NCBI GenBank assembly: GCA_964585095.1
Contig: CAZPCN010000004.1
Span: forward strand, 9,415-73,414
Source: an uncultured Syntrophaceae bacterium
GTDB taxonomy: Bacteria; Desulfobacterota; Syntrophia; Syntrophales; UBA2192
Length of the DNA stretch: 64,000 nt
Direction of reading: 5' to 3'
The translations under genes and the position numbers were made by a program. Shown here piece by piece: positions 20,002 to 37,111 of this stretch; the stretch's first letter is position 1, and each line of letters starts with the position of its first letter. Below the pieces are notes generated by a model. It saw only the letters and a list, made by a program, of their open reading frames with translations. It was not told the DNA's origin and ran no database searches.

Positions 20002-20133
20002 GAATCGGGCTCTTTCCTGAAAACCGTTGGTGTTCCCTGACCCGGATGACCTCTTCGCGGACTGCCCGGTCGACGGGCCCGCTTAAAATAGCAATTCGAG
20101 CCGGCCCTGTAAATCGACATTTTGCAGGGCCAT

Positions 20134-20164
20134 GAAAAATGCCCGGAGCTTCCGCCCCGGGCAT
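20134..20164 (-). terminator. Intrinsic terminator candidate for the ModE-like gene
   Basis: On the minus strand: ATGCCCGG-loop-CCGGGCAT followed by TTTTT. Confidence 0.5.
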
Positions 20165-20207
20165 TGTCACTTTTGTCACTGTTGTCACTCTTGCCACTGT
20201 TCACTTC
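20163..20207. repeat. Period-9 tandem repeat (nTTGTCACT x4-5)
   Basis: ATTGTCACT TTTGTCACT GTTGTCACT CTTGCCACT GTTCACTTC, directly abutting the stop codon of the ModE-like gene. Confidence 0.7.
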
Positions 20208-20525
20208 TTACGGCAGTTTCGCCTGGTACTCCTTCAGCAGCCCGTCGATCCGGATTTCCAGCTCCACGAAGGCATCCTTCAATTTCTTTGCCTCATCGGT
20301 CAAACGCATGCCCTGGCGGTTGTCGGTCAGCTCCACGAGGGGAATCCCCAACCTGTCCTCGGAGGCCCTCAGACGCCCCCACGCGGCGCGGTAAGACATC
20401 TTGAGTTTCTTCGCCGCGGCGCTGAGGCTCTGGCATTCCTCGATCGCCTCGAGCAATTCGAATCGGCCCGGCCCGAAAATGACGCGATCGTTCTTTTCGA
20501 GCCACAGCTTGTGCCTGATTTTCAT
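20208..20525 (-). CDS. ModE N-terminal-like winged-helix DNA-binding protein (no Mop/TOBE domains)
   Basis: The 105-aa product has GPGRFELLEAIEECQSLSAAAKKLKMSYRAAWGRL, the ModE/LysR-type HTH pattern. It is divergent from the first AOR operon. Confidence 0.75.
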   Translation of the reverse strand: MKIRHKLWLEKNDRVIFGPGRFELLEAIEECQSLSAAAKKLKMSYRAAWGRLRASEDRLGIPLVELTDNRQGMRLTDEAKKLKDAFVELEIRIDGLLKEYQAKLP

Positions 20526-20609
20526 GTCTGCTCCTCTTCGGCCCCCGGCGGAGGATCGGCGGTCCGGGCGCCACGGAATCGCGTGCTATTCTGCACGACA
20601 AGGCCGCTT

Positions 20610-20642
20610 ATGTCAAACATGGCATAACTAGTTGATATAATT
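20610..20642. promoter_or_regulatory. Operator-like conserved palindromic block, copy 1
   Basis: ATGTCAAACATGGCATAACTAGTTGATATAATT is near-identical to 23857-23889. It contains ATGTCA-N4-TGrCAT and an AACTAGTT palindrome. It ends 21 nt before the -35 box, the same spacing as in copy 2. Confidence 0.55.
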
Positions 20643-20663
20643 GCGCTTTTGAGAAGATAAAAT

Positions 20664-20693
20664 TTGACTTCCCTCCCGCGATACGCATATAGT
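20664..20693 (+). promoter_or_regulatory. Sigma-70-like promoter, AOR operon 1
   Basis: TTGACT-N18-TATAGT. The homologous position upstream of operon 2 has TTGACT-N17-TATATT. Confidence 0.55.
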
Positions 20694-21104
20694 GCCTCTC
20701 GAACGAAGACCGTCACGCGCGGCACTTTCGTATTCCCGGGCCGATTTTCATTCAGGGTTCACCGCCCTGAGCGTATTCACGGGGTCAGCACAATCTGGGG
20801 GTCATCGGTGCGGGAAGCGTTGCCCGATGGGTTCGCATGGGTCGGCAATGCCGCGCAGGACAATCGAGAACAGACGGTCGTCACGGATCCCGGATGATTG
20901 CCACACCGCCCCCTTCTCATCTTTCCGCCCTGCACGGCGATTTCCGCCCGTGGCCTTTTCCCGTTCCCGGTGCTTCACCGGGAAAACAGAAGCCCTCGTC
21001 GCAAACCGATTCACCGAAGAAAAGAAAACGCCGGAAAGGGGGGATCAGAGCGTACCCGCTTGACGTAAAGCCGTTAACACGAGGCAATCCAATGGAGGTC
21101 AGAC

Positions 21105-21851
21105 ATGGAAGAAAAGAAACTGCCTGATGTTCTCAAGAAGGAGACGAGCCGTCGCGACTTCTTGAGAGGGACCGCCACGGCGGCGGGAAGCGCGATTGCG
21201 ATTTCCGCCATCGGCGGCATCGCCCCCAAAAAGGCCGAGGCCCAGTACTCGGTCCAGACCGCACCGGGCACCAAGCCCTACGCGCAGAAGTTCCTCTATA
21301 CCGCGCGCCACAACTGCACGGGCTGCCGCAGCTGCGAGCTGGCCTGTTCGCTGTTCCACACCGGCAATGTCCGCCCCGACATGGCCCGCATCTGGATCGA
21401 AAAGTACAAGGACATCGTCGACGTGCCGGTCATCTGCTGGCAGTGCGACGACGCCCCCTGCATCGCCGCGTGCCCCACGACGCCGAAGGCGATCACGCGC
21501 GACGCCAAGAGCAACGGCATCATCCTCAACGAGAAGATCTGCCTGGGCGCCAAGTGCATGAAGTGCGCCGAAGCCTGTCCGGCCAAGTACGTCCGCGGCA
21601 ACCCCGACACGGGCCAGCCCCTGATCTGCGATCTCTGCGGCGGCGACCCCCAGTGCGTCAAGGCCTGCCATGCCCAATCCGGCAACCCCCAGGGGCCCAG
21701 CCTCATGAGCCGCCCCGTCGGCATCGGCATGAACATGTCCTTCCGTAACGTCACGCCGGAAGAGGCGGGCAAGGATCTCGCGCACCTCCTGTTCTACCCC
21801 AACGTCGAGGGCAAGAGGGTTGTGCCCGCGAAGACCAGGAAAGGGAGGTGA
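21105..21851 (+). CDS. Tat-signal 4x[4Fe-4S]-type polyferredoxin (DmsB/HybA/YdhX-like), partner of AOR-1
   Basis: Twin-arginine motif SRRDFLRG with an AEA-Q cleavage-like site. Four Cys clusters are present (CTGCRSCELAC, CWQCDDAPCIAACP, CLGAKCMKCAEACP, CDLCGGDPQCVKAC). Confidence 0.85.
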   Translation: MEEKKLPDVLKKETSRRDFLRGTATAAGSAIAISAIGGIAPKKAEAQYSVQTAPGTKPYAQKFLYTARHNCTGCRSCELACSLFHTGNVRPDMARIWIEKYKDIVDVPVICWQCDDAPCIAACPTTPKAITRDAKSNGIILNEKICLGAKCMKCAEACPAKYVRGNPDTGQPLICDLCGGDPQCVKACHAQSGNPQGPSLMSRPVGIGMNMSFRNVTPEEAGKDLAHLLFYPNVEGKRVVPAKTRKGR

Positions 21852-21856
21852 TCACC

Positions 21857-23683
21857 ATGGCAACACCCAAAGGCGGAAATTTCGGAAAGGTACTGGAGAT
21901 CGACCTCAGCACGCAGACAGCCAAGACGAGGTCAATCCCCGATGAGGTCTACCAGCAGTTTGTCGGCGCCCGCGGCCTCGGGGCCTACTTCGCCGTGAAA
22001 GAGTACAAGGCCGGCAAGAACCCGCTGGACGAGGATGCCTTCGTGTTCGTGGGTCCCGGCCCCCTGGCCGGGACCATGTGCGTCTCCCCGCGAACCTGCA
22101 TCGTCAACAAGAACCCCTACACGGGGCTTCTGAACCACGGCGAGTGCGGCGCCCACCTGGCGAGCGAGATCAAGTGGGCCGGCTGGGACGGCATCTACAT
22201 AAAAGGACGGGCGAAGAAGCCCATATGGTTCTCCGTCGTCAACGACAAGGTCGAGTTCAAGGACGCCTCGAAGATGTGGGGCAAGACCACGGACGACACC
22301 CACGAGATGATGATCAAGGACATGAAGGACTCCCGCATCCGCTCGATCGTCATCGGCCCCGCGGGCGAGAACGGTGTCCCCTATTCCTGCCTGATCGTCG
22401 AGCGGTTCCGCGCCGCGGCGCGCAGCAATGCGGGAATCGTCTTCGGCGACAAGAAACTGAAGGGCTTCGCCGTGCGCGGCACGAAGTATGCCGTGCCCGT
22501 CGTCGACAACGCCAAGTTCCTGGCGGCTGCGAACGTCGCCAAGGAGACCAACATCAGCGACCCTGGAGCGGGACGGCGGAAGGTGTGGGGAACGGCCAGT
22601 TCGATGGAGACCAACAACTTCGTCCTCGGCTCGCTCATCGTGAAGAACTTCCAGACCACCTGGTGGCCCGACGTCGTCAAGCTGGGCGCCGAGGAGGCCG
22701 AGAGAAAGTTCTGGAAGCGCCACGTCTCCTGCACCAACTGCCAGACGCACTGCCTGAAACTGGGCGTGCTGCGCGAAGGCAAGTACAAGGGTCTCATCGC
22801 CGAGGCCCCCGAGTACGAGTCCGGCGGGCTCCTGGGGACGAACCTGGGCATGAAGGACTTCGACCAGATGGCCGCCCTCATCGAGGCCTGCGACGCCTAC
22901 GGGCTGGATTACATCTCCACGGGCGGCGTGCTGGGCTTCACGACGGAAGCCGTCGAGAAGGGAGCCCTGAAACCCTCTGACCTCGACGGCCTGAAGCCCA
23001 CCTGGGGCGACGGCGACACCTACATGAAGCTGATCGACAAGATCGCCTACAAGCAGGGCAAAGCCGGCAAGCTCCTCTCCCAGGGTGTCGCCCGCATGTC
23101 CAAGCGGATCGGCAAGGGCACCGACGCCTACGCCAACGTGGTGAAGGGCCGCGAGATGGCTGCCCACGACCCGCGGGGCGACAAGAACCGGTTCTACACC
23201 TATTGCATCGGCACCAACGGGGCGGACCACGCCGAGGGCGCAAGCAGCAGCGATCTGTGTCGGGTGGCCATGAACGACTCGCTGTGCCTGTGCACCTTCA
23301 CCTCCTCCGGAGTCTGGGGCGCCTCGACGGACAAGATCGTCGTGGACATGCTCAACCCGCTGTGCGGCTGGAACTGGAAGACCGATGACTACTGGATGGC
23401 CGGAAAGCGCATCCTGACGGCCGAGCGCGTCTTCAACGTCCGCGAGGGAATCAGCTCCAAGGACGACCGGCTGCCCAAGCGTTTTTACGCGGAAAAGCTG
23501 CCCGCCGGGCCGAAGAAGGGCGTCGTCTTCACCGAGGAGGACCATACGAAGCGCCAGACCGACGCCTATAAGTTCCTCGGATGGGACGAGAAAGGCGTAC
23601 CGACGGAGGCCTCTCTCAAGGCCTACGGTCTCGACTTCCTGATTGAGGACCTCAACGCGGCAAGAAAGAAATACAACCTGTAA
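21857..23683 (+). CDS. Aldehyde:ferredoxin oxidoreductase family (tungsto/molybdopterin) enzyme, copy 1
   Basis: AFOR N-domain pattern (KVLEIDLS...GARGLGAYF...GPGPLAGT...IGPAGENGVPYSC...KGFAVRG). A CTNCQTHC FeS motif. GLDYISTG and DSLCLCTF pterin-binding-type motifs. ATG follows GGGAGG; the ORF-track GTG at 21848 is an alternative start. No signal peptide. Confidence 0.9.
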   Translation: MATPKGGNFGKVLEIDLSTQTAKTRSIPDEVYQQFVGARGLGAYFAVKEYKAGKNPLDEDAFVFVGPGPLAGTMCVSPRTCIVNKNPYTGLLNHGECGAHLASEIKWAGWDGIYIKGRAKKPIWFSVVNDKVEFKDASKMWGKTTDDTHEMMIKDMKDSRIRSIVIGPAGENGVPYSCLIVERFRAAARSNAGIVFGDKKLKGFAVRGTKYAVPVVDNAKFLAAANVAKETNISDPGAGRRKVWGTASSMETNNFVLGSLIVKNFQTTWWPDVVKLGAEEAERKFWKRHVSCTNCQTHCLKLGVLREGKYKGLIAEAPEYESGGLLGTNLGMKDFDQMAALIEACDAYGLDYISTGGVLGFTTEAVEKGALKPSDLDGLKPTWGDGDTYMKLIDKIAYKQGKAGKLLSQGVARMSKRIGKGTDAYANVVKGREMAAHDPRGDKNRFYTYCIGTNGADHAEGASSSDLCRVAMNDSLCLCTFTSSGVWGASTDKIVVDMLNPLCGWNWKTDDYWMAGKRILTAERVFNVREGISSKDDRLPKRFYAEKLPAGPKKGVVFTEEDHTKRQTDAYKFLGWDEKGVPTEASLKAYGLDFLIEDLNAARKKYNL

Positions 23684-23694
23684 GATGCCATTCA

Positions 23695-23740
23695 AACAAG
23701 GGCGGGTGAGCGAATCACCCGCCCTTGTTCTATCTTTCCT
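23695..23740 (+). terminator. Stem-loop after AOR-1 (15-bp stem), weak T-tail
   Basis: AACAAGGGCGGGTGA-gcgaa-TCACCCGCCCTTGTT is homologous to the hairpin after AOR-2. Confidence 0.5.
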
Positions 23741-23856
23741 TCCTTCCAGCCCTTTTCTGCCTGAAGATTGCCCGGATATCGCTCTTTCAGGAATAATCCC
23801 TGCACTGCGGAACGGGTCGGTTGAAACGCCAGCATGCCTGCACGGCAGAGGCACCT

Positions 23857-23889
23857 ATGTCATACTTGACATAACTAGTTGATATGATT
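23857..23889. promoter_or_regulatory. Operator-like conserved palindromic block, copy 2
   Basis: ATGTCATACTTGACATAACTAGTTGATATGATT. ATGTCA-N4-TGACAT is a perfect inverted repeat here. Confidence 0.55.
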
Positions 23890-23910
23890 ATGCAAATCTT
23901 GAAAAAAAGT

Positions 23911-23939
23911 TTGACTAACGCCGTGCATGCGTCTATATT
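23911..23939 (+). promoter_or_regulatory. Sigma-70-like promoter, AOR operon 2
   Basis: TTGACT-N17-TATATT, 21 nt downstream of the operator-like block. Confidence 0.55.
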
Positions 23940-24308
23940 GCTTCGCGGGCGGAGAGCGTTCATCGTTAATCCGTTCGCGAGCAAGGGTTCCTTCTCTTTC
24001 CAGCACTCCGAAGGAAATTCTTGCGAGGGGGAGGCAGCAGTCAGGGGAGTCGTTGTTCGAAAAGCCGGCTTGGCCAGCGGCTTGCAGCGGGGGGGTTTTC
24101 TCCGCTGCGCGGTACAAGACCGGTAGTATGCGACGGATCCCGGATGATTGCGGCAACAACCCAACTTCATGGCTCTCATCTTCGCCGAGTAAGCAATCCG
24201 GTATTCCCGCACGAACGCAATCGACATTCCACGGCACACTACGCAAGACACGCGCATGACCTGCGTTCGGAGCGAGGTCTCGCGTGCTTTTCGAAAGGAG
24301 TTTGAGTC

Positions 24309-24800
24309 ATGAAGAAGGGATTGCTTGTATTCACCATCGTACTCGCCGTAACGCTCGCCCTGTCGGGCATGCTCTTCGCCCAGGGAAAGAAGGGCCCCGC
24401 CGCCAGCGGCAAGGCTCTGTGGGATTACATCCAGAAGGAGAAGTACCAGAGCTGGAAGATGTGGCCCGGCACCGAGGCCCAGTACAAGGGCCCCGAGCCC
24501 CACGGCGCCTTCCTGACGACCTACGTCAACCAGGCCGCCTTCGACTCCATCAAGGCCAAGAAGGGCAAGTTTGCCGACGGGGCCATGATCGTCCAGGACA
24601 ACTTCGACAAGAACAAAAAGCTCAAGCACATCGACGTCATGTACAAGGTGAAGGGCTATAACCCCAAGGGCGGCGACTGGTTCTGGGCGCAGTACAAGCC
24701 GAGCGGCAAGGTGGACCAGGAGGGAAAGATCGACGAGTGCATCAAGTGCCACGAGGCCCAGAAGGGGAACGACTACGTCTACACGAGCAAGATGAAGTAA
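24309..24800 (+). CDS. Cytochrome P460-family-like periplasmic c-type heme protein
   Basis: Sec-type signal peptide (MKKGLLVFTIVLAVTLALSGMLFAQG). GGDWFWAQY block. A single C-terminal CIKCH heme c motif. RBS GAAAGGAG. Confidence 0.65.
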   Translation: MKKGLLVFTIVLAVTLALSGMLFAQGKKGPAASGKALWDYIQKEKYQSWKMWPGTEAQYKGPEPHGAFLTTYVNQAAFDSIKAKKGKFADGAMIVQDNFDKNKKLKHIDVMYKVKGYNPKGGDWFWAQYKPSGKVDQEGKIDECIKCHEAQKGNDYVYTSKMK

Positions 24801-24950
24801 GCGCTCCCGCCGGGATCGCCGCGCGACTCGGCAGGAGGAACCGATCGAACAGAAAAGCCGAAATCAGAGACATCTCGAAAGGAGGTATCCCGGTTTCATT
24901 TCGTTGATGTGTCAAGCCGTTAACACGAGGCAATCCAATGGAGGTCAGAC

Positions 24951-25703
24951 ATGGAAGAAAAGAAACTGCCTGATGTTCTCAAGAAGGAGACGAGCCGTCG
25001 CGACTTCTTGAGAGGGACCGCCACGGCGGCGGGAAGCGCACTCGCGATTTCCGCCATCGGCGGCATCGCCCCGAAGAAGGCCGAGGCCCAGTACTCGGTC
25101 CAAGGCGTGCCGGGCACCCCGCCCTACGCGCAGAAGTACCGTTTCGCCGAGCGCCACAACTGCACGGGCTGCCGGAGCTGCGAGTTTGCCTGCTCGCTGT
25201 TCCACACCGGCAACGTCCGCCCTGCCCTGTCGCGCATCTACATTGCCAAGTACAAGGACATGGTCGACGTGCCGGTCATGTGCTGGCACTGCGACGACGC
25301 GCCCTGCATCGCCGCATGCCCCACGACGCCGAAGGCGATCCAGAAGGATGCCAAGACCAACGGCATCGTCCTCAACGAGAAGATCTGCCTGGGCGCCAAG
25401 TGCATGAAGTGCCAGGAGGCCTGCCCGGCCAAGTACATCCGCGGCAACCCCGACACGGGCCAGCCCCTGATCTGCGATCTCTGCGGCGGCGACCCCCAGT
25501 GCGTCAAGGCATGCCAGGAGCAGTCCGGCAACCCCCAGGGCCCCTGCCTCATGGGACGGCCTGTCGGCATCGGCGTGAACATGGCCTACCGCTCCGTCAC
25601 GCCGGAAGAAGCAGGTAAGGATCTCGCGAACCTCCTGTTCTATCCCAACGTCGAGGGCAAGAGGGTCGTGCCCGCGAAGTCCAAGACCAAGAAGGGGAGG
25701 TGA
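24951..25703 (+). CDS. Tat-signal polyferredoxin, partner of AOR-2 (paralog of 21105-21851)
   Basis: Same architecture as copy 1 and roughly 85 percent identical to it by my manual alignment. The first 89 coding nt, plus 37 nt upstream, are identical to copy 1. Confidence 0.85.
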   Translation: MEEKKLPDVLKKETSRRDFLRGTATAAGSALAISAIGGIAPKKAEAQYSVQGVPGTPPYAQKYRFAERHNCTGCRSCEFACSLFHTGNVRPALSRIYIAKYKDMVDVPVMCWHCDDAPCIAACPTTPKAIQKDAKTNGIVLNEKICLGAKCMKCQEACPAKYIRGNPDTGQPLICDLCGGDPQCVKACQEQSGNPQGPCLMGRPVGIGVNMAYRSVTPEEAGKDLANLLFYPNVEGKRVVPAKSKTKKGR

Positions 25704-25708
25704 GAACC

Positions 25709-27535
25709 ATGGCAACACCCAAAGGCGGAAATTTCGGAAAGGTACTGGAGATCGACCTGAGCAAGCAGACCTACAAGACGCGTACGGTCTCCGATGAGAT
25801 CCTCCAGCAGTATATCGGCGGGCGCGGCCTCGGGGCCTACTACGCCGTGACGGAATACAAGGCGGGCAAGAACGCCCTCGACGAGGACGCCTTCGTATTC
25901 GTGGGGCCCGGGCCCCTGTCGGGCACCATGGCCGTCTCCCACCGGACCTGCTTCGCCCACAAGAGCCCCTACACGGGCCTCATGACCCACGCCGAGACGG
26001 GCGCCCACCTGGCCAGCGAGATCAAGTTCGCCGGCTGGGACGGCCTCTACATCAAGGGCCGGGCCAAGAAACCCACGTGGTTCACCGTCGTGAACGACAA
26101 GGTCGAGTTCAAGGACGCCTCCAAGATGTGGGGCAAGACCACCGACCAGACCCACGAGATGATGATCAAGGAAATGAAGGACCCCGAAATCCGTACGGCC
26201 GTCATCGGCCCCGCCGGGGAGAACGGCGTCCCCTACTCCTGCATCATCGTCGAGCGCTTCCGCGCCGCCGCCCGCAGCGGCACCGGCATGGTCTTCGGCG
26301 ACAAGAAGCTCAAGGGCTTCGCCGTGCGCGGCACGAAGTACGCCGTGCCCGTCGCGGACAACGCCAAGTTCCTGGCTGCCGCCAAGGTCAACAAGGACAA
26401 CAACGTGCGGCGCGAGGCCTGGGAGGGCATCAAGCGCTGGGGTACGGGCGGCCTGATGGAGCTCAAGCACTACCTCCACGGCTCGCTCATCGTAAAGAAC
26501 TACCAGACCACCTGGTTCCCCGACGTCATCAAGATCGGCGGCGAGGAGGCGGCCCGGACGTTCTGGAAGCGGCACGCGTCCTGCACCAACTGCCCGACGC
26601 ACTGCCTGAAGCTGGGCGTCATCCGCAGCGGCAAGTACGCGGGGATGGTCGCCGAGGGCCCCGAGTACGAGTCCGGCGGCCTGCTGGGATCGAACCTGGG
26701 CATGACGAAGTTCGACGAGATGATCGCCCTCATCGAGGCCTGCGACGCCTACGGCCTCGACAACATCTCCACGGGCGGCGTGCTCGCCTTCACGACGGAA
26801 GCCGTCGAGAAGGGCGCCCTGAAGCCCACGGACCTCGACGGCCTGAAGCCCAAGTGGAACGACGGCGACACCTACATGGAGATGATCCGCAAGATCGCCT
26901 ACCAGGAAGGCAAGGCCGGCAAGCTCATGGCCAAGGGCGTCAGGAAGATGTCCAAGGAAATCGGCAAGGGCTCCGAAGCCTACGCCAACCACACCAAGGG
27001 CAAGGAACTGGCGGCCCACGACCCGCGGGGCGACAAGATTCGCGCCTACAGCTACACGATGGGCACCTGCGGCGGCGACCACCACGAAGGCCAGGGGCCC
27101 CAGGCCCTCGGCATGACGGCGATGGCCGACTCGCTGTGCATCTGCTCCTTCACCAACTTCCTCGTCTACGGCGCAGGCACGGACAAGATCATCACCGACA
27201 TGCTCAACCCGCTGTGCGGCTGGAACTGGAAGCCGGAGGACTACTGGACCACGGCGAAGCGCATCTTCACGCTGGAGCGCGTCTTCAACGTCCGCGAGGG
27301 CATCAGCTCCAAGGACGACCGGCTGCCCATCCGCATGTACAAGGAGAAGCTGCCTGCAGGACCTCGGAAGGACGTCATCTTCACCGATGCCGATCAGAAG
27401 GACATGGAGACCAAGACCTACGGGTTCTTCGGCTGGGACGCCAAGGGCATCCCGACGGAAGCCACCCTCAAGGCCTACGGCCTCGATTACCTGATCGCCG
27501 ACGTCAACGCGGCGAAGAAGAAGTACAACCTCTAA
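25709..27535 (+). CDS. Aldehyde:ferredoxin oxidoreductase family enzyme, copy 2
   Basis: Collinear paralog of 21857-23683 with the same motifs (CTNCPTHC, GLDNISTG, DSLCICSF). ATG follows GGGGAGG. Confidence 0.9.
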   Translation: MATPKGGNFGKVLEIDLSKQTYKTRTVSDEILQQYIGGRGLGAYYAVTEYKAGKNALDEDAFVFVGPGPLSGTMAVSHRTCFAHKSPYTGLMTHAETGAHLASEIKFAGWDGLYIKGRAKKPTWFTVVNDKVEFKDASKMWGKTTDQTHEMMIKEMKDPEIRTAVIGPAGENGVPYSCIIVERFRAAARSGTGMVFGDKKLKGFAVRGTKYAVPVADNAKFLAAAKVNKDNNVRREAWEGIKRWGTGGLMELKHYLHGSLIVKNYQTTWFPDVIKIGGEEAARTFWKRHASCTNCPTHCLKLGVIRSGKYAGMVAEGPEYESGGLLGSNLGMTKFDEMIALIEACDAYGLDNISTGGVLAFTTEAVEKGALKPTDLDGLKPKWNDGDTYMEMIRKIAYQEGKAGKLMAKGVRKMSKEIGKGSEAYANHTKGKELAAHDPRGDKIRAYSYTMGTCGGDHHEGQGPQALGMTAMADSLCICSFTNFLVYGAGTDKIITDMLNPLCGWNWKPEDYWTTAKRIFTLERVFNVREGISSKDDRLPIRMYKEKLPAGPRKDVIFTDADQKDMETKTYGFFGWDAKGIPTEATLKAYGLDYLIADVNAAKKKYNL

Positions 27536-27551
27536 CCGTCTGATTTTCACG

Positions 27552-27600
27552 GCAAGGGCGGGTGACTTGCTCACCCGCCCTTGCTTTTCCTTTTTGCTTT
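27552..27600 (+). terminator. Intrinsic terminator after AOR-2
   Basis: GCAAGGGCGGGTGA-cttgc-TCACCCGCCCTTGC followed by TTTTCCTTTTTGCTTT. Confidence 0.7.
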
Positions 27601-27683: not shown

Positions 27684-28385
27684 ATGGCCTTTTCACGCAG
27701 GGACACAATCCAGCTTCTCGTCAGCGGGGCGGTTTCGACCGCCATCTTCGGCCTCTTTAAGGTAAGCGGGGCCAGGGAAATTCCGCGCCCGCCCGGTGCC
27801 CTCGAAGAAAAATCCTTCCTCGAGTATTGCGCGCGCTGCTATCGGTGCGTCGACGTCTGCCCCACCGACGCGATCCGTCCGGCCGGCCTCGAAGGCGGCA
27901 TCACAAGCTTCGGCACCCCCATTCTGCGCCACAAGGAATGCATCTTCTGCATGGCCTGCATCAAGGAGTGCCCCACGGGGGCCATCGCGAAGATCTCCCG
28001 CGACGAGGTCGACATCGGCAACGCCGTCATCGACCGCTCAACCTGCCTGGCCTGGACGGGCCAGGAGGACTGCACGCGCTGCTTCGACGCCTGCCGCTAC
28101 GACGCCATCAAGCTCGAGAAGGACAAGTACCCCGTCGTCCTCGAGGACCCCTGCACGGGCTGCAACGCCTGCGAGAAACGCTGCCCCACGAAACCCAAGT
28201 CGATCGTCTGCCACTACGACAAGGTGAAGCGAATCCCGCCGCCGGAAAAGCGCGTCGCCCTGCGGCGCGAGGAAGAGGACGGACGGGGCCACGGACGCGA
28301 GGAGGGGTTTACGGACTGGCTGAAGAAGCGGGTGGAGAAGCTCCGGGAGCATTACGGGCTCGTTAAAGAGGAAGAGGAAGAATAA
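27684..28385 (+). CDS. NapG/MauM-like polyferredoxin with N-terminal RR-containing signal or anchor
   Basis: MAFSRRDTIQLLVSGAVSTAIFG, then four CxxCxxC(xxx)CP-type motifs (CARCYRCVDVCP, CIFCMACIKECP, CTRCFDACRYDA, CTGCNACEKRCP). Acidic C-terminal tail. Confidence 0.7.
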   Translation: MAFSRRDTIQLLVSGAVSTAIFGLFKVSGAREIPRPPGALEEKSFLEYCARCYRCVDVCPTDAIRPAGLEGGITSFGTPILRHKECIFCMACIKECPTGAIAKISRDEVDIGNAVIDRSTCLAWTGQEDCTRCFDACRYDAIKLEKDKYPVVLEDPCTGCNACEKRCPTKPKSIVCHYDKVKRIPPPEKRVALRREEEDGRGHGREEGFTDWLKKRVEKLREHYGLVKEEEEE

Positions 28386-28390
28386 AACTC

Positions 28391-28421
28391 GGGTATCGGG
28401 TCTAGGGTCTCGGGTATAGGG
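28391..28421. repeat. GGG-N4 array (5 G-tracts)
   Basis: GGGTATC GGGTCTA GGGTCTC GGGTATA GGG lies between the NapG-like and first HdrA-like genes. Confidence 0.65.
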
Positions 28422-28435
28422 TTCAAAGATTCACA

Positions 28436-29647
28436 ATGAAGATTACAGACAAGAAAACCAAAACCGTGCTTGTGGTAGGAGGCGGGGTGGCCGGGATATC
28501 GGCGGCCCTCGACCTGGCCGGCAACGGCCACCGGGTACACCTCGTCGAGAAGGGCCACGACCTGGGCGGCCAGGTGGCGAAGCTCGACAAGTTCTACCCG
28601 ACGGACCACTGCGCCTTCTGCCCCCTCTGGACGGAAATCCGCCGATGCAAGGAAGACGAGGCGATTGCCGTCCACCCGCTCTCCCGCGTGGAGACCCTCG
28701 AGCAGCAGACCGGGGGGTACCGGGCCGTCGTCGTCCAGTCGGCGCCCGTCGTCGACCCGTCGCTCTGCATCAACTGCGGCCGCTGTGAAACGGCATGCCC
28801 GAAAGACCTCGCGAAGCCGATCTGGGAACACGCCTACCCGCCCGTCCACGTCATCGACGGGACTCGCTGCGGGGACTGCCGCGCCTGTGTGGCGGCATGC
28901 CCCGTGAAGGCCATCGCCTTCGACCGGGAAGAGCAGCGCATCGCGCTGGACGCGGACGAGGTCATCTGGGCGGCGGGCTTCGACGAAGTGAGCCTCGCCC
29001 CGATGAAGGAATACGGGTGGGGGACGCACCCGGACATCCTCACGTCGCTCGAGTTCGAGGCCTGGAAGGCCGAGGCGGGCGACAACCGGGGCAAAATCAT
29101 CCGGCGCTCCGACCGATCCGCGCCCCGGAACATCCTCTTCGTGCAGTGCGCGGGCGCACGGGACCTGAGGCTCCTGCCCCACTGCTCCGCCGTCTGCTGC
29201 ATGCATGCGCTCAAGCAGGCCCAGTGGGTCAAGCGAAGAAACCCGGACATCGACTGCATCATCCTCTACACGGACCTGCGCACCGTGGGGAGGGACTACT
29301 ACGAGTACGCCCTGCGCGATTTCAACGGCAACGTCGTCCGCCTCGTCCGGGGACGTTCCTCGCTCATCACCCCCCTGCCCGGCGGCAACGGGATTGCCGT
29401 GAAGTACGAGGACACGATCACAGGAAAGCGCGAGATCCGGCAGTTCGACATGGTCGTCCTCAACGGGAACCTGCAGTCCTCCCTCGCGTCGAAGCCGTCG
29501 CCGAAGGCGCGGCCGGAGCTGAGCGGCGAGGGGTTCGTGACAGCGGCGTCCGTCTCCTGCGGGTTCGTCATGGAGCCGGCGGATGTAACGGAATCGGCGA
29601 TCCAGGCGGCATCGGCGGCACTCAGAACGATTACGGACAAGAACTGA
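28436..29647 (+). CDS. HdrA/QmoA-like FAD- and FeS-containing flavoprotein (short form)
   Basis: VLVVGGGVAGISAALDLA...LVEKGHDLGGQVAKLDKFYPTDHCAFCPLW. Inserted ferredoxin motif CINCGRCETACP. FVQCAGARD...CSAVCCMHALK, as in HdrA/Qmo proteins. Confidence 0.8.
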   Translation: MKITDKKTKTVLVVGGGVAGISAALDLAGNGHRVHLVEKGHDLGGQVAKLDKFYPTDHCAFCPLWTEIRRCKEDEAIAVHPLSRVETLEQQTGGYRAVVVQSAPVVDPSLCINCGRCETACPKDLAKPIWEHAYPPVHVIDGTRCGDCRACVAACPVKAIAFDREEQRIALDADEVIWAAGFDEVSLAPMKEYGWGTHPDILTSLEFEAWKAEAGDNRGKIIRRSDRSAPRNILFVQCAGARDLRLLPHCSAVCCMHALKQAQWVKRRNPDIDCIILYTDLRTVGRDYYEYALRDFNGNVVRLVRGRSSLITPLPGGNGIAVKYEDTITGKREIRQFDMVVLNGNLQSSLASKPSPKARPELSGEGFVTAASVSCGFVMEPADVTESAIQAASAALRTITDKN

Positions 29648-29648
29648 A

Positions 29649-31355
29649 ATGGCAAAGATCGGCGTCCTTCTCTGCAACTGTTTCGGCGAGATCGGCAACA
29701 CCGTCAACCTGGAGTCCATCCGGGAACGGCTCGCGTCCGACCCCTCGGTGGACTTCGTGACCATCCGTGAGTCCCTCTGCCAGCCGGGCGATGCCTCTGC
29801 GGTGCATGCCATGCTCCGCGAGCGCGGGATCGGAAAGGTGCTCCTCGGCGCCTGTTCACCCTACGGCAGGATGGAAGCCGTGCGTCTCGGTCTCGCGAAG
29901 GAGGGCGTCGACGTCAGGACCGTGCGCGCCGCGGACCTGCGCGAAGGTTGCGCCTGGATCCACGGGAAAGACCCCGGGGGCGCGACGCGCAAGGCGGCAA
30001 ACCAGCTGGACATGGAACTTGCCCTCCTGCAGAACACGCAGGATTCGAAGGACATCGACATCCGTCTCCGGCGCGAGGCGCTGGTGATCGGAGCGGGGCC
30101 CGCGGGCCTCTCGGCCGCCTGCGGCCTGGCCCGCATGGGAATCAGGGTGCACCTCGTCGATCGTGGGACGGCCCCCGGCGGCCTTCTCAACGTGGTGACG
30201 AAGGTGTACCCGACGGAGCTGTCGGGACCGGAGAAACTCAAGCCCCTTGTCGAGATGGCGGGCAACAACCCCCTCATCCGTTTTTATGGGAAGACCAAAG
30301 TTGCCTCGGTGAAGGGGTATGCCGGCGATTTCAAGGTCTCCCTCGCTGGACCGGAAGGAAACACGAGCCTGCGCGTGGGGGCCGTCGTGCTCGCCACGGG
30401 GGCGCGCCTCCTGTTCCCCCAGGGGCTCTACGGTTACGGGAAAACGAAGAACGTGATCACCCAGATGGAGATGGAGAGGCAGTTCGCGACGGGGAAGGTC
30501 GCCTGCAGGACGGCCGTCTTCATCCAGTGCGTCGGCGCCCGCTGCGCCGAGCGGCCCTACTGCTCGACCATCTGCTGCCCGATGTCCCTGAAGAATGCCA
30601 TGCGGATTCTCGACGAGGTGCCCGGTTCGAAGGCCGTGATCCTGCACCGCGACATCATGACACCGGGAAGCGTCCTGGAGGCTTTTTACCGCAAGGCCCT
30701 GCACAGGGGCGTCCAGTTCATCCGCTTCGATGCGGACAAGCCCCCGCAGGTCAGGGGCGACGGCCAGGTGAGCGGCGTCGAGGTCTTCGACGTCCTGAGC
30801 GGGATGACCCGTTCGATCGAGACAGACCTGCTCGTCCTGAGCACTCCGCTCGTGGCCGACCCGGATAGCGCGGCGCTTGCCCGCATGCTCGAGATCCCCG
30901 TGGACAAGCACGGCTTCATCGCCGAGGTCTACCCGGTTCACCCCGTGGAGACGCGAAACGACGGCGTCTTCATCTGCGGGACGGCCCGCTGGCCCGTCTC
31001 GTCGGACCAGGCCATCGCGCAGGGCGAGGCGGCAGCCGTGAAGGCGGCCTCCTTCCTCGGGCGGGAAACGGTCTCTGCTCTCACCATGAGCCGGGTCCCG
31101 GGCTCCAAGCTCGGCCATGCGGCGGCCAACGCCGATGCCTGCACGGGCTGCGGCAACTGTGTTGTCGTCTGCCCTTACGGGGCCTGCAAGCTGCAGCGAA
31201 CGGGGCAGCGCTCCGTGAGCCGGGTGATCAAGGTCCGCTGCAAGGCCTGCGGAAGCTGCGCGTCGGTCTGCCCCAACGGGGCGATGCAGATCCCCGAGCA
31301 GAACTACCGGGTCACGGGAGCCATGATCCGCCGTGCTTTCCGGGAGGTGCGCTGA
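29649..31355 (+). CDS. HdrA/QmoB-like flavoprotein with N-terminal Cys-rich domain and C-terminal 2x[4Fe-4S]
   Basis: KIGVLLCNCFGEIG N-domain. ALVIGAGPAGLSAA FAD motif. FIQCVGARC...CSTICCPMSLKNA. C-terminal CTGCGNCVVVCP and CKACGSCASVCP. It starts 1 nt after the previous stop. Confidence 0.8.
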   Translation: MAKIGVLLCNCFGEIGNTVNLESIRERLASDPSVDFVTIRESLCQPGDASAVHAMLRERGIGKVLLGACSPYGRMEAVRLGLAKEGVDVRTVRAADLREGCAWIHGKDPGGATRKAANQLDMELALLQNTQDSKDIDIRLRREALVIGAGPAGLSAACGLARMGIRVHLVDRGTAPGGLLNVVTKVYPTELSGPEKLKPLVEMAGNNPLIRFYGKTKVASVKGYAGDFKVSLAGPEGNTSLRVGAVVLATGARLLFPQGLYGYGKTKNVITQMEMERQFATGKVACRTAVFIQCVGARCAERPYCSTICCPMSLKNAMRILDEVPGSKAVILHRDIMTPGSVLEAFYRKALHRGVQFIRFDADKPPQVRGDGQVSGVEVFDVLSGMTRSIETDLLVLSTPLVADPDSAALARMLEIPVDKHGFIAEVYPVHPVETRNDGVFICGTARWPVSSDQAIAQGEAAAVKAASFLGRETVSALTMSRVPGSKLGHAAANADACTGCGNCVVVCPYGACKLQRTGQRSVSRVIKVRCKACGSCASVCPNGAMQIPEQNYRVTGAMIRRAFREVR

Positions 31356-33125: not shown

Positions 33126-35170
33126 ACCCCGAATTCATCCGAACCATATGCCCCTACTGCGGCACGGGATGCGGCATCGTCCTGAAGATCGAGGACGGTC
33201 GCGCGGCCGCTTCGTACCCCGACCGGGAAAACCCGGTGAGCCGGGGCTCGCTCTGCGTGAAGGGCTGGTTTTCCCACGAGTTCGTCCATCACCCCGAGCG
33301 GCTGACGGCCCCGCTTCTGCGCAAGGGCGACGCGTTCGTGGAAATCTCCTGGGAGGAGGCCATTGCGCTTGCGGCCCGCAAGCTCCGGGAAACGGCCGAA
33401 AAATACGGCCCCGACAGCGTGGGCGGGCTCTCGTCGGCCAAGTGCACCAACGAGGAGAACTACCTCTTTCAGAAGCTCATCCGGGCGGCCTTCCGGACCA
33501 ACAACGTGGACCACTGCGCCAGGCTCTGCCACGCGGCCACCACGGTGGGCATGCTCCAGACCCTCGGCAGCGGCGCCATGACGAACTCCATCTCGGACCT
33601 GGCCGGTGCGGACTGCATCCTTTTCATCGGCTCCAACGCCGCCGAGAGCCACCCCGTGCTCATGGGCGAGGTCTACAAGGCCCTCGACCGGGGGGCGCAG
33701 ATGTTCGTCATCGACCCGAGGGAGACGCCGGTGGCTCGCAACGCCCGCAAGCTCCTGCGGCTCAACCCGGGCACGGACATCCCTCTGCTGGCCGGCATGA
33801 TGCGCCACATCGTCGACAGCGGGCTCCACGCAAAAGATTTCGTCGAGAAGCGGACGGAGAATGTCGAGGCCCTCAAGACGTTTCTTGCGGCCTGGCCCCT
33901 GGACAAGGTCGCAAGCGAGACCGGCATCGACGAGGCGACGATCCGCGAGGTGGCCGAGACGTACGCGAAGGCGGACAATGCCGCCATCGTCTACTGCATG
34001 GGCATCACGCAGCATGCCTGCGGGGTGGCCAACGTGATCGCCATCTGCGATCTGGCGATGCTCTGCGGCCAGGTCGGGAAGCCCTTCTCGGGGATCTACC
34101 CGCTGCGCGGCCAGAACAACGTGCAGGGCGCCTGCGACATGGGGGCCCTGCCCAACCTCTACCCCGGCTACCAGGGCGTGGCCGACCCGGCCATCCGCGA
34201 GAAGTTCCAGAAGGCCTGGAAGGCGGAGCTTTCCGACAAGCCCGGCAAGACCGTGACGGAGCTCATCAACGCCTCCGGCAAGGACATCCGCGCCCTCTAC
34301 ATCATGGCCGAGAACCCCTGCATCAGCGACCCCGACGTGAACCACGTCATGGAGGCCCTGCAGCGGCTCGACTTCCTGATCGTGCAGGATATCTTCCTGA
34401 CCGAGACGGCGAAGTTCGCCCACCTCGTCCTGCCCGGCGCCTGCTTTGCCGAGAAGACGGGAACCTACACGAACACGGAGCGGCGGTTCCAGCTCCTGCA
34501 CAAGGCCGTCGACCCGCCCGGGAAGGCCATGGGCGACTTCGAGATCCTCTGCATGATGGGCAAGGCCCTGGGGCTGCCCTTCGACTACGCTTCGCCCGCC
34601 GAGGTGATGGCGGAGTACGCGGGACTCGTCCCGGCCTACGCGGGGATCTCGTTCGACCGATTGGAACGGGCGGGCCTGCAGTGGCCCTGCCCCGACGAGA
34701 AGCACCCGGGGACGCGGTTCCTGCACGGCACGACGTTCACCCGGGGGCTCGGCCGGTTCGTCATCCCCGACTACACGCCGCCCATGGAAAAGCCCGACGC
34801 GGAGTACCCCTACTACCTCAACACGGGGCGCGTCTTCGCCCACTACCACACGGGGACGATGACGAGGCGCTCGGCGTTTCTGAACCGCGAGATCGAGGAG
34901 CCCTACGTGGAGATCCACCCCGACGACGCCGCCGCCCTCGGCGTGGGCCCCGGCGACTGGATCCGGGTCACCTCGCGCCGCGGCAGTATCGTCACGACGG
35001 CCCGCATTTCCGATCGCGTGGTAAAGGGCAGCATCTTCGCCCCCTTCCACTTCACCGAGGCGAGGGCCAACATGCTCACGAACCCGGTGCTCGACCCGGC
35101 CTGCAAGACGCCCGAGTACAAGGTGTGCGCCGTGAAAATGGAAAAGGATCATGAAGCCCAGGCACGATAA
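33122..35170 (+). CDS. fdhA: Formate dehydrogenase catalytic subunit-like molybdo/tungstopterin oxidoreductase (Cys form)
   Basis: N-terminal CPYCGTGCGI...SRGSLCVKG FeS motif. VDHCARLCHAATT active-site block has Cys where Sec-type enzymes have U. The C-terminal beta-barrel block is (VEIHPDDAAALGV...GDWIRVTSRRG). The 32252 extension in the ORF track was rejected. Confidence 0.85.
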   Translation: MNPEFIRTICPYCGTGCGIVLKIEDGRAAASYPDRENPVSRGSLCVKGWFSHEFVHHPERLTAPLLRKGDAFVEISWEEAIALAARKLRETAEKYGPDSVGGLSSAKCTNEENYLFQKLIRAAFRTNNVDHCARLCHAATTVGMLQTLGSGAMTNSISDLAGADCILFIGSNAAESHPVLMGEVYKALDRGAQMFVIDPRETPVARNARKLLRLNPGTDIPLLAGMMRHIVDSGLHAKDFVEKRTENVEALKTFLAAWPLDKVASETGIDEATIREVAETYAKADNAAIVYCMGITQHACGVANVIAICDLAMLCGQVGKPFSGIYPLRGQNNVQGACDMGALPNLYPGYQGVADPAIREKFQKAWKAELSDKPGKTVTELINASGKDIRALYIMAENPCISDPDVNHVMEALQRLDFLIVQDIFLTETAKFAHLVLPGACFAEKTGTYTNTERRFQLLHKAVDPPGKAMGDFEILCMMGKALGLPFDYASPAEVMAEYAGLVPAYAGISFDRLERAGLQWPCPDEKHPGTRFLHGTTFTRGLGRFVIPDYTPPMEKPDAEYPYYLNTGRVFAHYHTGTMTRRSAFLNREIEEPYVEIHPDDAAALGVGPGDWIRVTSRRGSIVTTARISDRVVKGSIFAPFHFTEARANMLTNPVLDPACKTPEYKVCAVKMEKDHEAQAR

Positions 35171-35773: not shown

Positions 35774-37111
35774 ATGGAAGCGTCAAAGAAACCCGATACC
35801 CGAGACCCGATGCCCGAGACCCGGCCGCAGAGCGGCCTGAAGCTCGAGGATCTCAGGCCCCGACAGCCGGAGAAGAAGAAGTTCTCCGACTGGTTCATGC
35901 CGAGGCGGAACAACACGATCCTCTTCGACCCCGCGAAGTGCACCGGTTGCGGCACCTGCGAAATGATCTGCTCGACCCGCAACGTCGCGAAGGTGGCCCC
36001 GGCGTCGGCCAGCGTCAAGGTTCTTTCCGACGAGAAGCTCGGCAAGAACTTCGCCGTCCTCTGCCAGCACTGCCGCAGGCCCCTGTGCCTCGAGGCCTGC
36101 CCGACGCGGGCGATCGAAAAGGGCGAAGACGGCATCGTGCGGATCAACGACCTGTTCTGCGTCGACTGCGGCCTCTGCACCATGGCCTGCCCGGAAGCGG
36201 CGCCCCTCAAGGACCCGGGAACAGGCGAGATCCACAAGTGCGACCTCTGCGAGGGAGACCCGCTGTGCGTGAAGCACTGCCCCGAGGGCGCCCTGGCGAC
36301 CACCCGCGGAAACGCCTTCCGATGGATCAAGGCCGCCCGCTGGAGCGTCCAGGCCCTGTCGTTTCTCTTCCTCGTGCTTCTCGTCGTGGGGACCTTCTGC
36401 TATTTCCGGGCGGGGACGGTGGAACTGGCCTGCCCCACGGGGACGCTGCAGAACATCGCCTCGTCGGGGACGCTCATCCTCGTGGGCGCCTCGTCGGCCC
36501 TGGCCCTGCTCATCCTGACGGTCCTCTTCGGCAGGGTCTTCTGCGGCTGGGTCTGCCCCTTCGGCTTTGTCCTGGACCTGGTGGACAAGATCACCCCGAA
36601 GAAGCTCGGCTGGCCGAATTTCCTGAAAAGCCGGATGGCCAAGTACGGCATCCTCGGCGGCGCCGTAGGCAGCAGCGCCGTGCTGGGTTACCAGGCCTTC
36701 TGCACCGTCTGCCCCATCGGCACCCTGTGCCGCTCCTACGGGGTCCAGTCGGTCATGCAGAGCGCCGAGCTGGCCATCGTGCCGGCGCTGGCCGCGACGG
36801 AAATCGCCGAGCGCCGGTCCTGGTGCCGCTACCTCTGCCCCGTCGGCGCCACGCTGGGCATCGCCAGCCTGCTGAGGCTCCTCAAGATCGTCATCGGGGC
36901 CCGTAAATGCAAGAAATTCTCCTGCATCCAGTGCGCCGAGGTCTGCCCCGTGGGAATCATCAACGCCGACGAGCTTCGCGAGGGCATCTCCCCGAAAATC
37001 CCGATGACGGAGTGCATCATGTGCCTGCGCTGCGTGGACCGCTGCCCCTACAGCGCGGCGAAGGTCCGCTTCCGCTGGCAGAAATCGACCCCCGGGGAGG
37101 CGAACACATGA
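35774..37111 (+). CDS. Membrane polyferredoxin: N-terminal DmsB-like 4Fe-4S domain fused to a NapH/NosR-like CxxxCP membrane domain and a C-terminal 2x[4Fe-4S]
   Basis: CTGCGTCEMIC, CQHCRRPLCLEACP, CVDCGLCTMACP and CDLCEGDPLCVKHCP. Then TM helices with FCGWVCPFG and CRYLCPVG. Then CIQCAEVCP and CIMCLRCVDRCP. The start is uncertain: codons 6-17 are encoded by a CCC-N4 repeat (35792-35822), so the later ATG giving MPRRNNTILFDP (about 35897) may be the real start. Confidence 0.75.
   Translation: MEASKKPDTRDPMPETRPQSGLKLEDLRPRQPEKKKFSDWFMPRRNNTILFDPAKCTGCGTCEMICSTRNVAKVAPASASVKVLSDEKLGKNFAVLCQHCRRPLCLEACPTRAIEKGEDGIVRINDLFCVDCGLCTMACPEAAPLKDPGTGEIHKCDLCEGDPLCVKHCPEGALATTRGNAFRWIKAARWSVQALSFLFLVLLVVGTFCYFRAGTVELACPTGTLQNIASSGTLILVGASSALALLILTVLFGRVFCGWVCPFGFVLDLVDKITPKKLGWPNFLKSRMAKYGILGGAVGSSAVLGYQAFCTVCPIGTLCRSYGVQSVMQSAELAIVPALAATEIAERRSWCRYLCPVGATLGIASLLRLLKIVIGARKCKKFSCIQCAEVCPVGIINADELREGISPKIPMTECIMCLRCVDRCPYSAAKVRFRWQKSTPGEANT
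35792..35822. repeat. CCC-N4 array (5 C-tracts; G-quadruplex motif on the minus strand)
   Basis: CCCGATA CCCGAGA CCCGATG CCCGAGA CCC. Confidence 0.65.

Follow-up and report, generated by a model that had tools for sequence, protein, structure and literature searches.

A conserved ModE box shared by two aldehyde oxidoreductase operons next to a Mop-less ModE-like regulator in an uncultured Syntrophaceae bacterium

Among the described regulatory systems, those of the ModE family, in particular, E. coli ModE, R. capsulatus MopA/MopB and M. acetivorans ModE, come closest to the locus analyzed here. The binding site RTTATGT-N8-RCATAAY, predicted by Studholme and Pau, is required for the binding of M. 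acetivorans ModE, as shown by electrophoretic mobility shift assays with mutated and deleted half-sites (PMC12327845), and the consensus for E. coli ModE is ATCGCTATATA-N6-TATATAACGAT (PMC2700814, PMC545781). Single-domain ModE proteins of Desulfovibrio and D. psychrophila, and the puzzle of how they sense their signal, were noted by Rodionov et al. in 2004 (PMC545781). Here we analyze a 64,000-nucleotide (nt) stretch of DNA from an uncultured Syntrophaceae bacterium (contig CAZPCN010000004.1, positions 9,415 to 73,414, of assembly GCA_964585095.1), hereinafter the window, in which a 105-amino acid (aa) ModE-like regulator without a Mop domain is encoded divergently from two tandem aldehyde oxidoreductase (AOR) operons, each preceded by the same operator-like box. 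Comparison with related loci lends good support to reading this arrangement as a predicted ModE-box operator paired with a regulator of the Mop-less ModE type.

The locus resembles the ModE systems in the winged-helix N-domain, in the operator geometry with near-identical half-sites, and in that the targets are genes for enzymes with a molybdenum/tungsten (Mo/W) pterin cofactor; the geometry of the box equals that of the E. coli consensus and the sequence is close. Unlike full-length ModE, the 105-aa regulator has no Mop/TOBE domain, and several paralogues can be present in one genome, each next to a different operon. The ModE-N-only architecture is shared with the single-domain homologues from Desulfovibrio and D. 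psychrophila and with the protein of known structure 2ijl; however, the sites predicted in Desulfovibrio, CGGTCACG-N14-CGTGACCG, are located upstream of mod transport genes (PMC545781), whereas the window has a classical ModE box and an AOR/WOR operon as the target. Like the window regulator, TaoR, which controls aor of Desulfovibrio alaskensis in response to tungstate (Rajeev et al. 2019, as cited in PMC12327845), is dedicated to an aldehyde oxidoreductase gene in a member of Desulfobacterota. The window regulator differs in that it is a 105-aa, ModE-N-only protein with no further domain, with no sigma-54 promoter upstream of the operons in the window. TaoR, in contrast, is a sigma-54-dependent activator. 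Thus, the locus extends the known ModE/ModE-box system and involves no new principle; to a specialist, it is a fairly ordinary and unsurprising unit. Its principal features are as follows.

20208..20525, minus strand: ModE-N-only regulator, 105 aa, winged helix-turn-helix (HTH) plus long C-terminal helix, no Mop domain (Pfam HTH_1, E=4.6e-13)
20588..20616, minus strand: predicted regulator-gene promoter, TTGACA-17-CAGAAT (consensus scan, 10/12), with the -35 inside the left arm of box 1
20608..20627, unstranded: predicted ModE box 1, TTATGTCA-aaca-TGGCATAA, matching RTTATGT-N8-RCATAAY (PMC12327845)
20633..20642, plus strand: conserved element TGATATAATT, in a fixed register after box 1 (tGAwATnAtT columns across 29 sequences)
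20664..20693, plus strand: predicted sigma-70-type promoter P1, TTGACT-18-TATAGT (consensus scan, 10/12)
23855..23874, unstranded: predicted ModE box 2, CTATGTCA-tact-TGACATAA (pattern search)
23880..23889, plus strand: conserved element TGATATGATT, the copy-2 counterpart of 20633-20642
23911..23939, plus strand: predicted sigma-70-type promoter P2, TTGACT-17-TATATT (consensus scan, 10/12)

The regulator contains HTH_1 (PF00126) as the sole Pfam domain; there is no tandem Mop/TOBE domain, for which 105 aa leave no room. The AlphaFold2 (AF2) model of the protein (pLDDT 92) consists of a winged helix followed by a single long C-terminal helix (residues 77-103). The top Foldseek matches of this model are structures of E. 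coli ModE, namely, 1b9m (TMq 0.83), 1b9n and 1o7l (TMq range 0.73-0.83), and there is a full-length match to 2ijl (TMq 0.79, TMt 0.76), a 135-aa standalone 'putative ModE' from Agrobacterium (A. tumefaciens); a profile search of the PDB also retrieves 2ijl, as the best sequence match, and ModE. The modeled protein thus carries the fold of the ModE N-domain, and the claim of a sequence-only reading of this DNA that the gene encodes a ModE N-terminal HTH without Mop domains is borne out by both Pfam and the fold comparison. All 120 homologues among the matches listed are of similar architecture (81-148 aa, PF00126 only), with Syntrophaceae, Syntrophales, Smithellaceae and unclassified Deltaproteobacteria as the named sources.

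The two blocks upstream of the AOR operons, 20610-20642 and 23857-23889, are identical in 29 of the 33 nt, which confirms the near-identity reported by the sequence-only reading. The window contains exactly two matches to the 30-nt pattern TATGTCA-N4-TGRCATAACTAGTTGATAT, compared to 0.00 expected by chance (100 shuffles). The palindrome described in that reading, ATGTCA-N4-TGACAT, is perfect in copy 2 but in copy 1 carries one mismatch (ATGTCA-aaca-TGGCAT). Widened by one base on each side, the palindrome becomes TTATGTCA-N4-TGRCATAA, that is, TTATGT-N8-RCATAA, a 20-mer that is found in the window only at 20608-20627 and 23855-23874. Because both the geometry and the sequence fit RTTATGT-N8-RCATAAY, the shared palindrome qualifies as a canonical ModE box. 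The second palindrome of the block, AACTAGTT, likewise noted in the sequence-only reading, was rejected as a second operator: it is confined to a few close relatives, is not conserved and is incidental. For the element TGATATAATT that follows the box, two readings are possible, an extended -10 and a third half-site similar to TGACATAA.

A TTGACT -35 hexamer is located exactly 21 nt past each block and is followed by TATAGT or TATATT, as had been read from the sequence, and these two hexamer pairs are the top two of the 8-kb region in the consensus scan. With the start sites placed from the consensus hexamers at ~20700 and ~23946, the center of box 1 (20617.5) would be at about -82, and that of box 2 at about -81. 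The ATTCTGCAC stretch in the predicted promoter of the regulator gene is kept in close relatives. Control of the TaoR type, from a sigma-54 promoter, was considered and rejected: the only match to the -24/-12 element (TGGCAC-N5-TTGCW) upstream of the operons, at 24071-24086, has 2 mismatches and is not conserved in relatives, and the window as a whole contains 14 sigma-54-type matches versus 20 expected by chance.

A search with a profile of the regulator family against one genome per species identified 80 loci, of which almost all come from Syntrophales or related bacteria; 23 loci with the regulator divergent from the AOR operon were defined as orthologous by tblastn with the window proteins (individual loci are denoted by L numbers). 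The ModE box is present in all 23 orthologous loci and in 4 of 4 second copies (L003, L004, L005 and L009), at regulator identities down to 54%; in L018, there is a single change, TGTGTCA. Conservation of the motif upstream of orthologous AOR operons, which the sequence-only reading had named as a test of its own inference, is therefore what is found. The half-sites are kept, and the N4 spacer between them is free to change (AAAC, TTTA, TTAA, GAAA, ATAA, TATA, GCAT and others), a pattern that is the expected signature of a symmetric-dimer site. The fixed-register profile of 29 upstream regions reads TATGTCA-N4-TGRCATAA, N5, tGAwATnAtT, N3, cTaTT, A-tract, TTGAC, with TTGAC found in all 29 aligned regions, beginning 37 nt past the end of the box and 46 nt from its center. 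In L012, a ~1-1.3 kb insert (862-2188, with a 218-aa open reading frame (ORF), cluster c107) splits the regulator from the operon, which in this locus starts with a gene for a cytochrome P460-like protein; the box is on the operon side and, despite the insert, stays ~190 nt upstream of the P460 gene. The second copies, too, retain the box without an adjacent regulator gene. Both facts link the box with the operon and not with the gene of the regulator. Judging by the comparison of these loci, the box is a real feature that is under selection.

The sequence features, their conservation, the fold and the synteny are observed; from these, we infer DNA binding, the direction of regulation and the nature of the signal. 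In the interpretation that we favor, with a probability of about 0.6, the Mop-less ModE-like protein acts via the shared box on both AOR operons, through class-I-like activation combined with autorepression at box 1. The 105-aa protein would be the DNA-binding and dimerization half of ModE, and a dimer would occupy TTATGTCA-N4-TGRCATAA upstream of each operon and activate transcription from a class-I-like position; activation is suggested because the center of the box is about 82 nt upstream of the predicted start of a sigma-70-type promoter, with a conserved A-tract in between. The dimer on box 1 would additionally occlude the -35 of the divergent promoter of the regulator gene, which would result in negative autoregulation, in the clade of the window only. 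Given the lack of a Mop domain, and by analogy with E. coli ModE deprived of its C-terminal Mop domain, which binds DNA in a Mo-independent manner (McNicholas 1998, as cited in PMC12327845), the protein can be expected to bind DNA without an oxyanion. The Mo/W signal, if any, would then act in trans or through the amount of the regulator. For the Mo-boxes of R. capsulatus, the choice between activation and repression depends on position.

The remaining loci encode paralogues that are 51-64% identical to the window regulator; their neighborhoods were read by Pfam on cluster representatives. Some paralogues are located beside SBP_bac_11-type ABC transporters (modABC/tupABC-like) accompanied by an FmdE-domain zinc-finger protein; others adjoin a Tat-dependent periplasmic formate dehydrogenase (FDH) with FdhE, a cytoplasmic FDH, or NiFe and FeFe hydrogenases. 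At least two paralogues are encoded in several genomes (L001/L048, L004/L055, L006/L056, L013/L063, L016/L077), and in the neighbor-joining tree, the regulators cluster by genomic context, so that the context-wise clades support putative locally dedicated regulator-operon pairs. Boxes of the form TTATGTCA-N4-TGACATAA are located near many of the paralogues, at modABC/tupABC-FmdE loci as well as at those for FDH and hydrogenase. The complete module, from the box to TTGACA, is seen again in front of periplasmic FDH operons (L034, L037) and also in L026 and L042, whereas at the transporter loci the boxes are near or within the promoter; such a distribution would be expected if enzyme genes were activated and transporter genes repressed. 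The peptides MSYRAAWG/RLRASExRLG served as the search pattern for the paralogues, and the shared MSYRAAWG stretch of the HTH is in part an artefact of this selection; cross-recognition among the paralogues and boxes is possible.

Several further observations pertain to the paralogous loci. The FmdE protein is found beside ModE-N paralogues of the modABC/tupABC-type loci in L035, L040, L044, L045, L049, L052, L064, L067, L074 and L078, and is fused to a MoeA-like MoCF_biosynth domain in L030, L039, L041, L050 and L065; it might, speculatively, be a trans-acting Mo/W sensor or a cofactor-handling partner. The catalytic subunit of the periplasmic FDH appears as two adjacent ORFs, one of about 190 aa (Tat signal and Fe4S4) and the other of about 810-834 aa, in operons divergent from ModE-N paralogues (L034, L037, L061, L063, L068, L069, L071, L077 and others), as expected for an in-frame selenocysteine TGA codon. 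In L027, L035, L047, L055, L057 and L073, a third half-site directly adjoins the box, TTATGTCA-N4-TGACATAATGTCAA, with an FeFe hydrogenase gene nearby in L057 and L073; this arrangement, which is carried by hydrogenase-type loci, differs from that at the AOR and FDH operons. In a broader scenario, to which we assign a low probability, the Mop-less ModE paralogues of Syntrophales would form an enlarged set with one common type of operator, and each would control a different component of the machinery for interspecies electron transfer (periplasmic and cytoplasmic FDHs, NiFe and FeFe hydrogenases, Mo/W uptake, periplasmic WOR). The metal would be sensed in trans, for example, by the FmdE-type protein of the transporter-linked loci, and the signal would be passed to the DNA-binding paralogues via protein contact or heterodimerization, which would amount to a split, modular ModE.

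Several lines of evidence weigh against the activation of both AOR operons by the adjacent regulator. The score of the regulator against the NCBIfam model TIGR00637 (ModE_repress) is 48.2 bits (E = 8.4e-13), below the cutoff of 98.5, so that by this model it is a divergent relative and not a canonical member. Inspection of hexamer pairs by eye found no convincing regulator promoter in the distant orthologues, and the promoter with the -35 in the box is predicted in the clade of the window only. The sign of regulation is read from the position of the box and from nothing else, and the conserved TGATATAAT right after the box, if it is an extended -10, would put the box at about -30, in the position of a repressor site. 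The sequence-only reading had a Mop-less ModE act on both AORs; this core inference agrees with the conservation of the box, the match to the ModE-box consensus and the ModE-N fold, whereas Mo/W as the signal is an assumption. Finally, sister paralogues from the same genome, fetched via the same peptides, adjoin similar boxes, so the adjacent gene perhaps does not encode the only or the main binder.

The main rival explanation, which we consider unlikely, retains the same protein and the same box but assigns them to repression: TGATATAAT (20633-20641), with TGATATGAT as its copy-2 counterpart, would serve as an extended -10 for a start at ~20648, the box, at ~-39 to -22, would block RNA polymerase as at modA, and TTGACT/TATAGT would be a second promoter or remain unused. 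This reading accounts for the fixed position of tGAwATnAtT, 6 nt past the box in all 29 upstream regions, with TGnTATAAT in the clade of the window, and promoter occlusion is the best-known mode of action of ModE (PMC545781, PMC11672702). However, the distant orthologues have TGAAATCAT, a poor -10, and the TG varies (CG in L004 and L005, AG in L008); the element is equally similar to a third half-site (TGAyATAA compared to TGACATAA); and the downstream TTGAC and A-tract are more strongly conserved, in a module that recurs as a whole at FDH operons. It is also conceivable, albeit tentatively, that the boxes are read mainly by another ModE-family protein, a transporter-linked paralogue or a full-length ModE, within a genome-wide regulon in which the 105-aa protein is one of several interchangeable or heterodimerizing paralogues. 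The multiplicity of paralogues in several genomes, the similar boxes near paralogues at the FDH, hydrogenase and modABC/tupABC-FmdE loci and the MSYRAAWG stretch common to all paralogues speak in its favor, as does the precedent of the ModE paralogues MopA and MopB of R. capsulatus, which have overlapping targets. On the opposite side, the regulator clades track the type of the adjacent operon, the divergent pairing of the regulator with the AOR operon is held down to 54% identity, pointing to a local co-evolving pair, and the sharing of MSYRAAWG is to some extent a product of the search pattern. The 'dedicated regulon' of the sequence-only reading therefore holds insofar as the regulator subfamily tracks the AOR operon, and is qualified by the sister paralogues, some of them from the same genome, that adjoin boxes of a similar kind at loci for FDH, hydrogenase and Mo/W transport. 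A further alternative involves the regions between the promoters and the first genes, for which the following leaders are predicted.

20700..21104, plus strand: leader 1, about 405 nt, with a 19-mer at 20883-20901
23946..24308, plus strand: leader 2, about 363 nt; second occurrence of the 19-mer at 24133-24151 (minimum free energy (MFE) z-score -2.55)

We regard it as very doubtful that the main signal-dependent control resides in the ~360-405-nt leader RNA, in the form of a riboswitch-like element or attenuator around the 19-mer ACGGAUCCCGGAUGAUUGC, with the box and the regulator accounting only for basal or autoregulated promoter activity. The Moco/Tuco riboswitch typically resides in long leaders of Mo/W-enzyme genes that are transcribed from ModE-regulated promoters (PMC2408646, PMC11672702), and the setting in the window is alike. 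The 19-mer is identical in both window leaders, with the 17-nt core exact or near-exact in 9 more leaders of close relatives while the flanks drift; it is located at a constant distance of ~188 nt from the inferred transcription start, could form base pairs with a conserved segment upstream of it (AUCCGGGA with UCCCGGAU), and leader 2 folds better than shuffled sequences (z = -2.55). Nevertheless, the search against Rfam families, including the Moco riboswitch RF01055, yielded no match at the gathering threshold in the whole window and only noise at E<=10 in 20500-25000, and a Moco/Tuco riboswitch or other Rfam family in the leaders was accordingly rejected. The consensus folds obtained with RNAalifold for 11 and 19 leaders are weak, at -3.3 and -6.6 kcal/mol, and compensatory changes are nearly absent; the 19-mer variants of the copy-1 leaders are uncompensated, leader 1 has z = +0.31, and the element is deleted in copy 1 of L005-L008, where the operon is retained. 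The almost invariant 19-mer, ACGGATCCCGGATGATTGC, which is also present in L001, L003, L004, L005, L009 and L010, is confined to one genus-level clade and is absent from the distant orthologues, the leaders of which are about 110 nt long compared to about 360-420 nt in the clade of the window (503 nt in L009 copy 1). A metagenome scan for the 17-mer core retrieved 92 stretches, of which 10, all from the clade of the window, have the box about 280 nt upstream; the remainder are presumably chance matches. Practically no weight can be given to the remaining explanation, under which the blocks are functionless and alike merely through recent duplication. They do belong to a duplicated segment, but outside the block, the promoter hexamers and the 19-mer, the two upstream regions have strongly diverged, and therefore, the block is not simply a recent copy; furthermore, the box, the A-tract and TTGAC are kept in orthologous loci with regulators that are just 54-67% identical. 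This cross-genome conservation refutes a functionless duplication remnant. The leader ORFs 20692-21063 and 23927-24259 were rejected as genes: the only peptide that they have in common is 'RIPDDC', which is the translation of the 19-mer, indel lengths are not multiples of three, and there is no protein conservation.

The presumptive targets of the ModE-like regulator are the following genes, listed with the associated terminator-like hairpins.

21105..21851, plus strand: Tat-signal 4Fe-4S ferredoxin-like small subunit, WorS-type, copy 1 (248 aa; Fer4_11; SRRDFLRG motif)
21848..23683, plus strand: AOR/WOR large subunit, copy 1, apparently the derived paralogue (611 aa; AFOR_N + AFOR_C)
23695..23729, plus strand: intrinsic-terminator-like hairpin 3' of AOR1 (15-bp stem)
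24309..24800, plus strand: secreted cytochrome P460-like haem protein (163 aa; signal peptide, CIKCH; PF16694, E=8.5e-17)
24951..25703, plus strand: second copy of the Tat-signal ferredoxin-like small subunit (86% identical to copy 1 at the aa level)
25700..27535, plus strand: AOR/WOR large subunit, copy 2, apparently the ancestral orthologue (best PDB match 1aor)
27551..27585, plus strand: terminator-like hairpin 3' of AOR2, a second copy of the hairpin at 23695-23729
27684..31355, plus strand: distal part of the apparently ancestral operon, with genes for a poly-ferredoxin (233 aa) and for two HdrA-like FAD/FeS proteins of 403 and 568 aa (Pfam)

The regulator gene and operon 1 are separated by a 579-nt intergenic region (20526-21104), and AOR1 and the P460 gene by a 625-nt spacer (23684-24308). 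The tandem duplication seen by the sequence-only reading is genuine for the ferredoxin/AOR pairs: the direct repeats 21065-23737 and 24911-27593 show 77-92% nt identity, and the aa identity is 86% for the ferredoxins and 73% for AOR1 compared to AOR2. The two units are not equivalent, however: the second consists of P460, ferredoxin and AOR and continues into the ferredoxin and HdrA-like genes, and the P460-like gene, which lies between promoter 2 and ferredoxin 2, was absent from the earlier account of copy 2, as were the terminator-like hairpins 3' of both AOR genes from that reading. In the distant loci (regulator 54-82% identical), a single-copy regulator is divergent from P460, ferredoxin, AOR, Fer233 and two HdrA-like genes wherever the contig reaches far enough, and the P460-like gene leads the operon in all single-copy orthologous loci; the distal genes follow AOR in L010-L024 and L054 (contigs that reach that far) and in L173. 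The tandem arrangement typical of the window is found in the close relatives L003, L004, L005 and L009 (regulator 85-90% identical) and in L173, a 1-Mb Syntrophaceae contig with independent gene calls. The single-copy AORs of the distant loci are 70-72% identical to AOR2 but 66-68% identical to AOR1, and the P460-ferredoxin spacer of copy 2 has a homologous counterpart in the 3' end of leader 1 (about 21064-21104). Together with the single-copy synteny, these relationships imply that copy 2 represents the ancestral operon (P460-Fd-AOR-Fer-HdrA-like), and copy 1 a derived duplicate without P460. In this lineage, a segment comprising the box, promoter, leader and ferredoxin-AOR pair would have been duplicated beside the regulator, and that copy would have lost P460.

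Both AOR copies contain the AFOR_N and AFOR_C domains (Pfam, E = 1e-58 to 1e-93), with the AOR of P. furiosus (1aor) as the closest solved structure, and ferredoxin copy 1 scores above the cutoff of TAT_signal_seq TIGR01409 (21.6 bits, cutoff 16.7). Class V WORs are defined by a Tat-signal small subunit and are predicted to be periplasmic and membrane-associated, with no physiological role assigned (PMC13328260). The two ferredoxin/AOR pairs combine a Tat-signal small subunit with a WorL that contains AFOR_N and AFOR_C and, by the Tat-signal ferredoxin, both enzymes would therefore be Class V (periplasmic) WORs, a class assignment derived from the Tat signal and domains. They resemble the described members of the class (WOR clade 41; E. 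coli YdhV/YdhY; C. somerae WOR41) in AFOR_N + AFOR_C and in the Tat-signal poly-ferredoxin small subunit (PMC13328260) but, unlike the YdhV systems, are accompanied by a secreted P460-like protein and HdrA-like flavoproteins instead of YdhWXUT. The best NCBIfam matches of the window enzymes are YdhV and ferredoxin-like models, far under their cutoffs; the YdhV model PRK09849 covers just the N-terminal third of WorL, at 178-190 bits compared to the cutoff of 868. It is plausible that the P460-like cytochrome is the periplasmic redox partner of the AOR/WOR enzyme.

Other genes for pterin enzymes are present in the window, namely, an FDH-alpha-like ORF (33148-35154), 44% identical to the cytoplasmic FDH cluster, and, at ~35774-38433, a ferredoxin ORF and a distant AOR-like ORF (about 36907-38433; about 25% identity). 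A search of the window for extra ModE boxes by the FDH-like (33148-35154) and AOR-like (~36907-38433) ORFs found none. Directly past the stop codon of the regulator gene, at 20164-20201, there are 9-nt tandem units (TTGTCACTC on the plus strand, AGTGACAAn on the strand of the regulator), followed by a GC-rich inverted repeat with a T-run, a terminator-like hairpin read by eye; situated between the stop codon and this hairpin, the array is probably a part of the 3' untranslated region of the regulator. Arrays of (G/A)AGTGAnnn, of varying length, occupy the same place in L001, L003, L005, L006, L008 and L009. Farther along, a promoter-like site of ftsH, TTTACA-17-TATTTT with an upstream TG (20085-20113, minus strand), lies within a block, gcaaaatgtcgatttacagggc..., that is kept in the close relatives examined, in all of which the gene order past the regulator is ftsH, resB and a cytochrome c assembly gene.

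The combination of a conserved operator with a small regulator would provide an experimental handle on the timing of Class V WOR production. With the box, the protein and two target promoters within 4 kb, the locus is also a test case for the way a Mop-less ModE responds, a question that dates back to 2004 (PMC545781). Because the sister paralogues adjoin genes for FDHs, hydrogenases and Mo/W transport, these observations suggest that trace-metal-linked control of the electron-transfer enzymes of syntrophs runs via the Mop-less ModE family.

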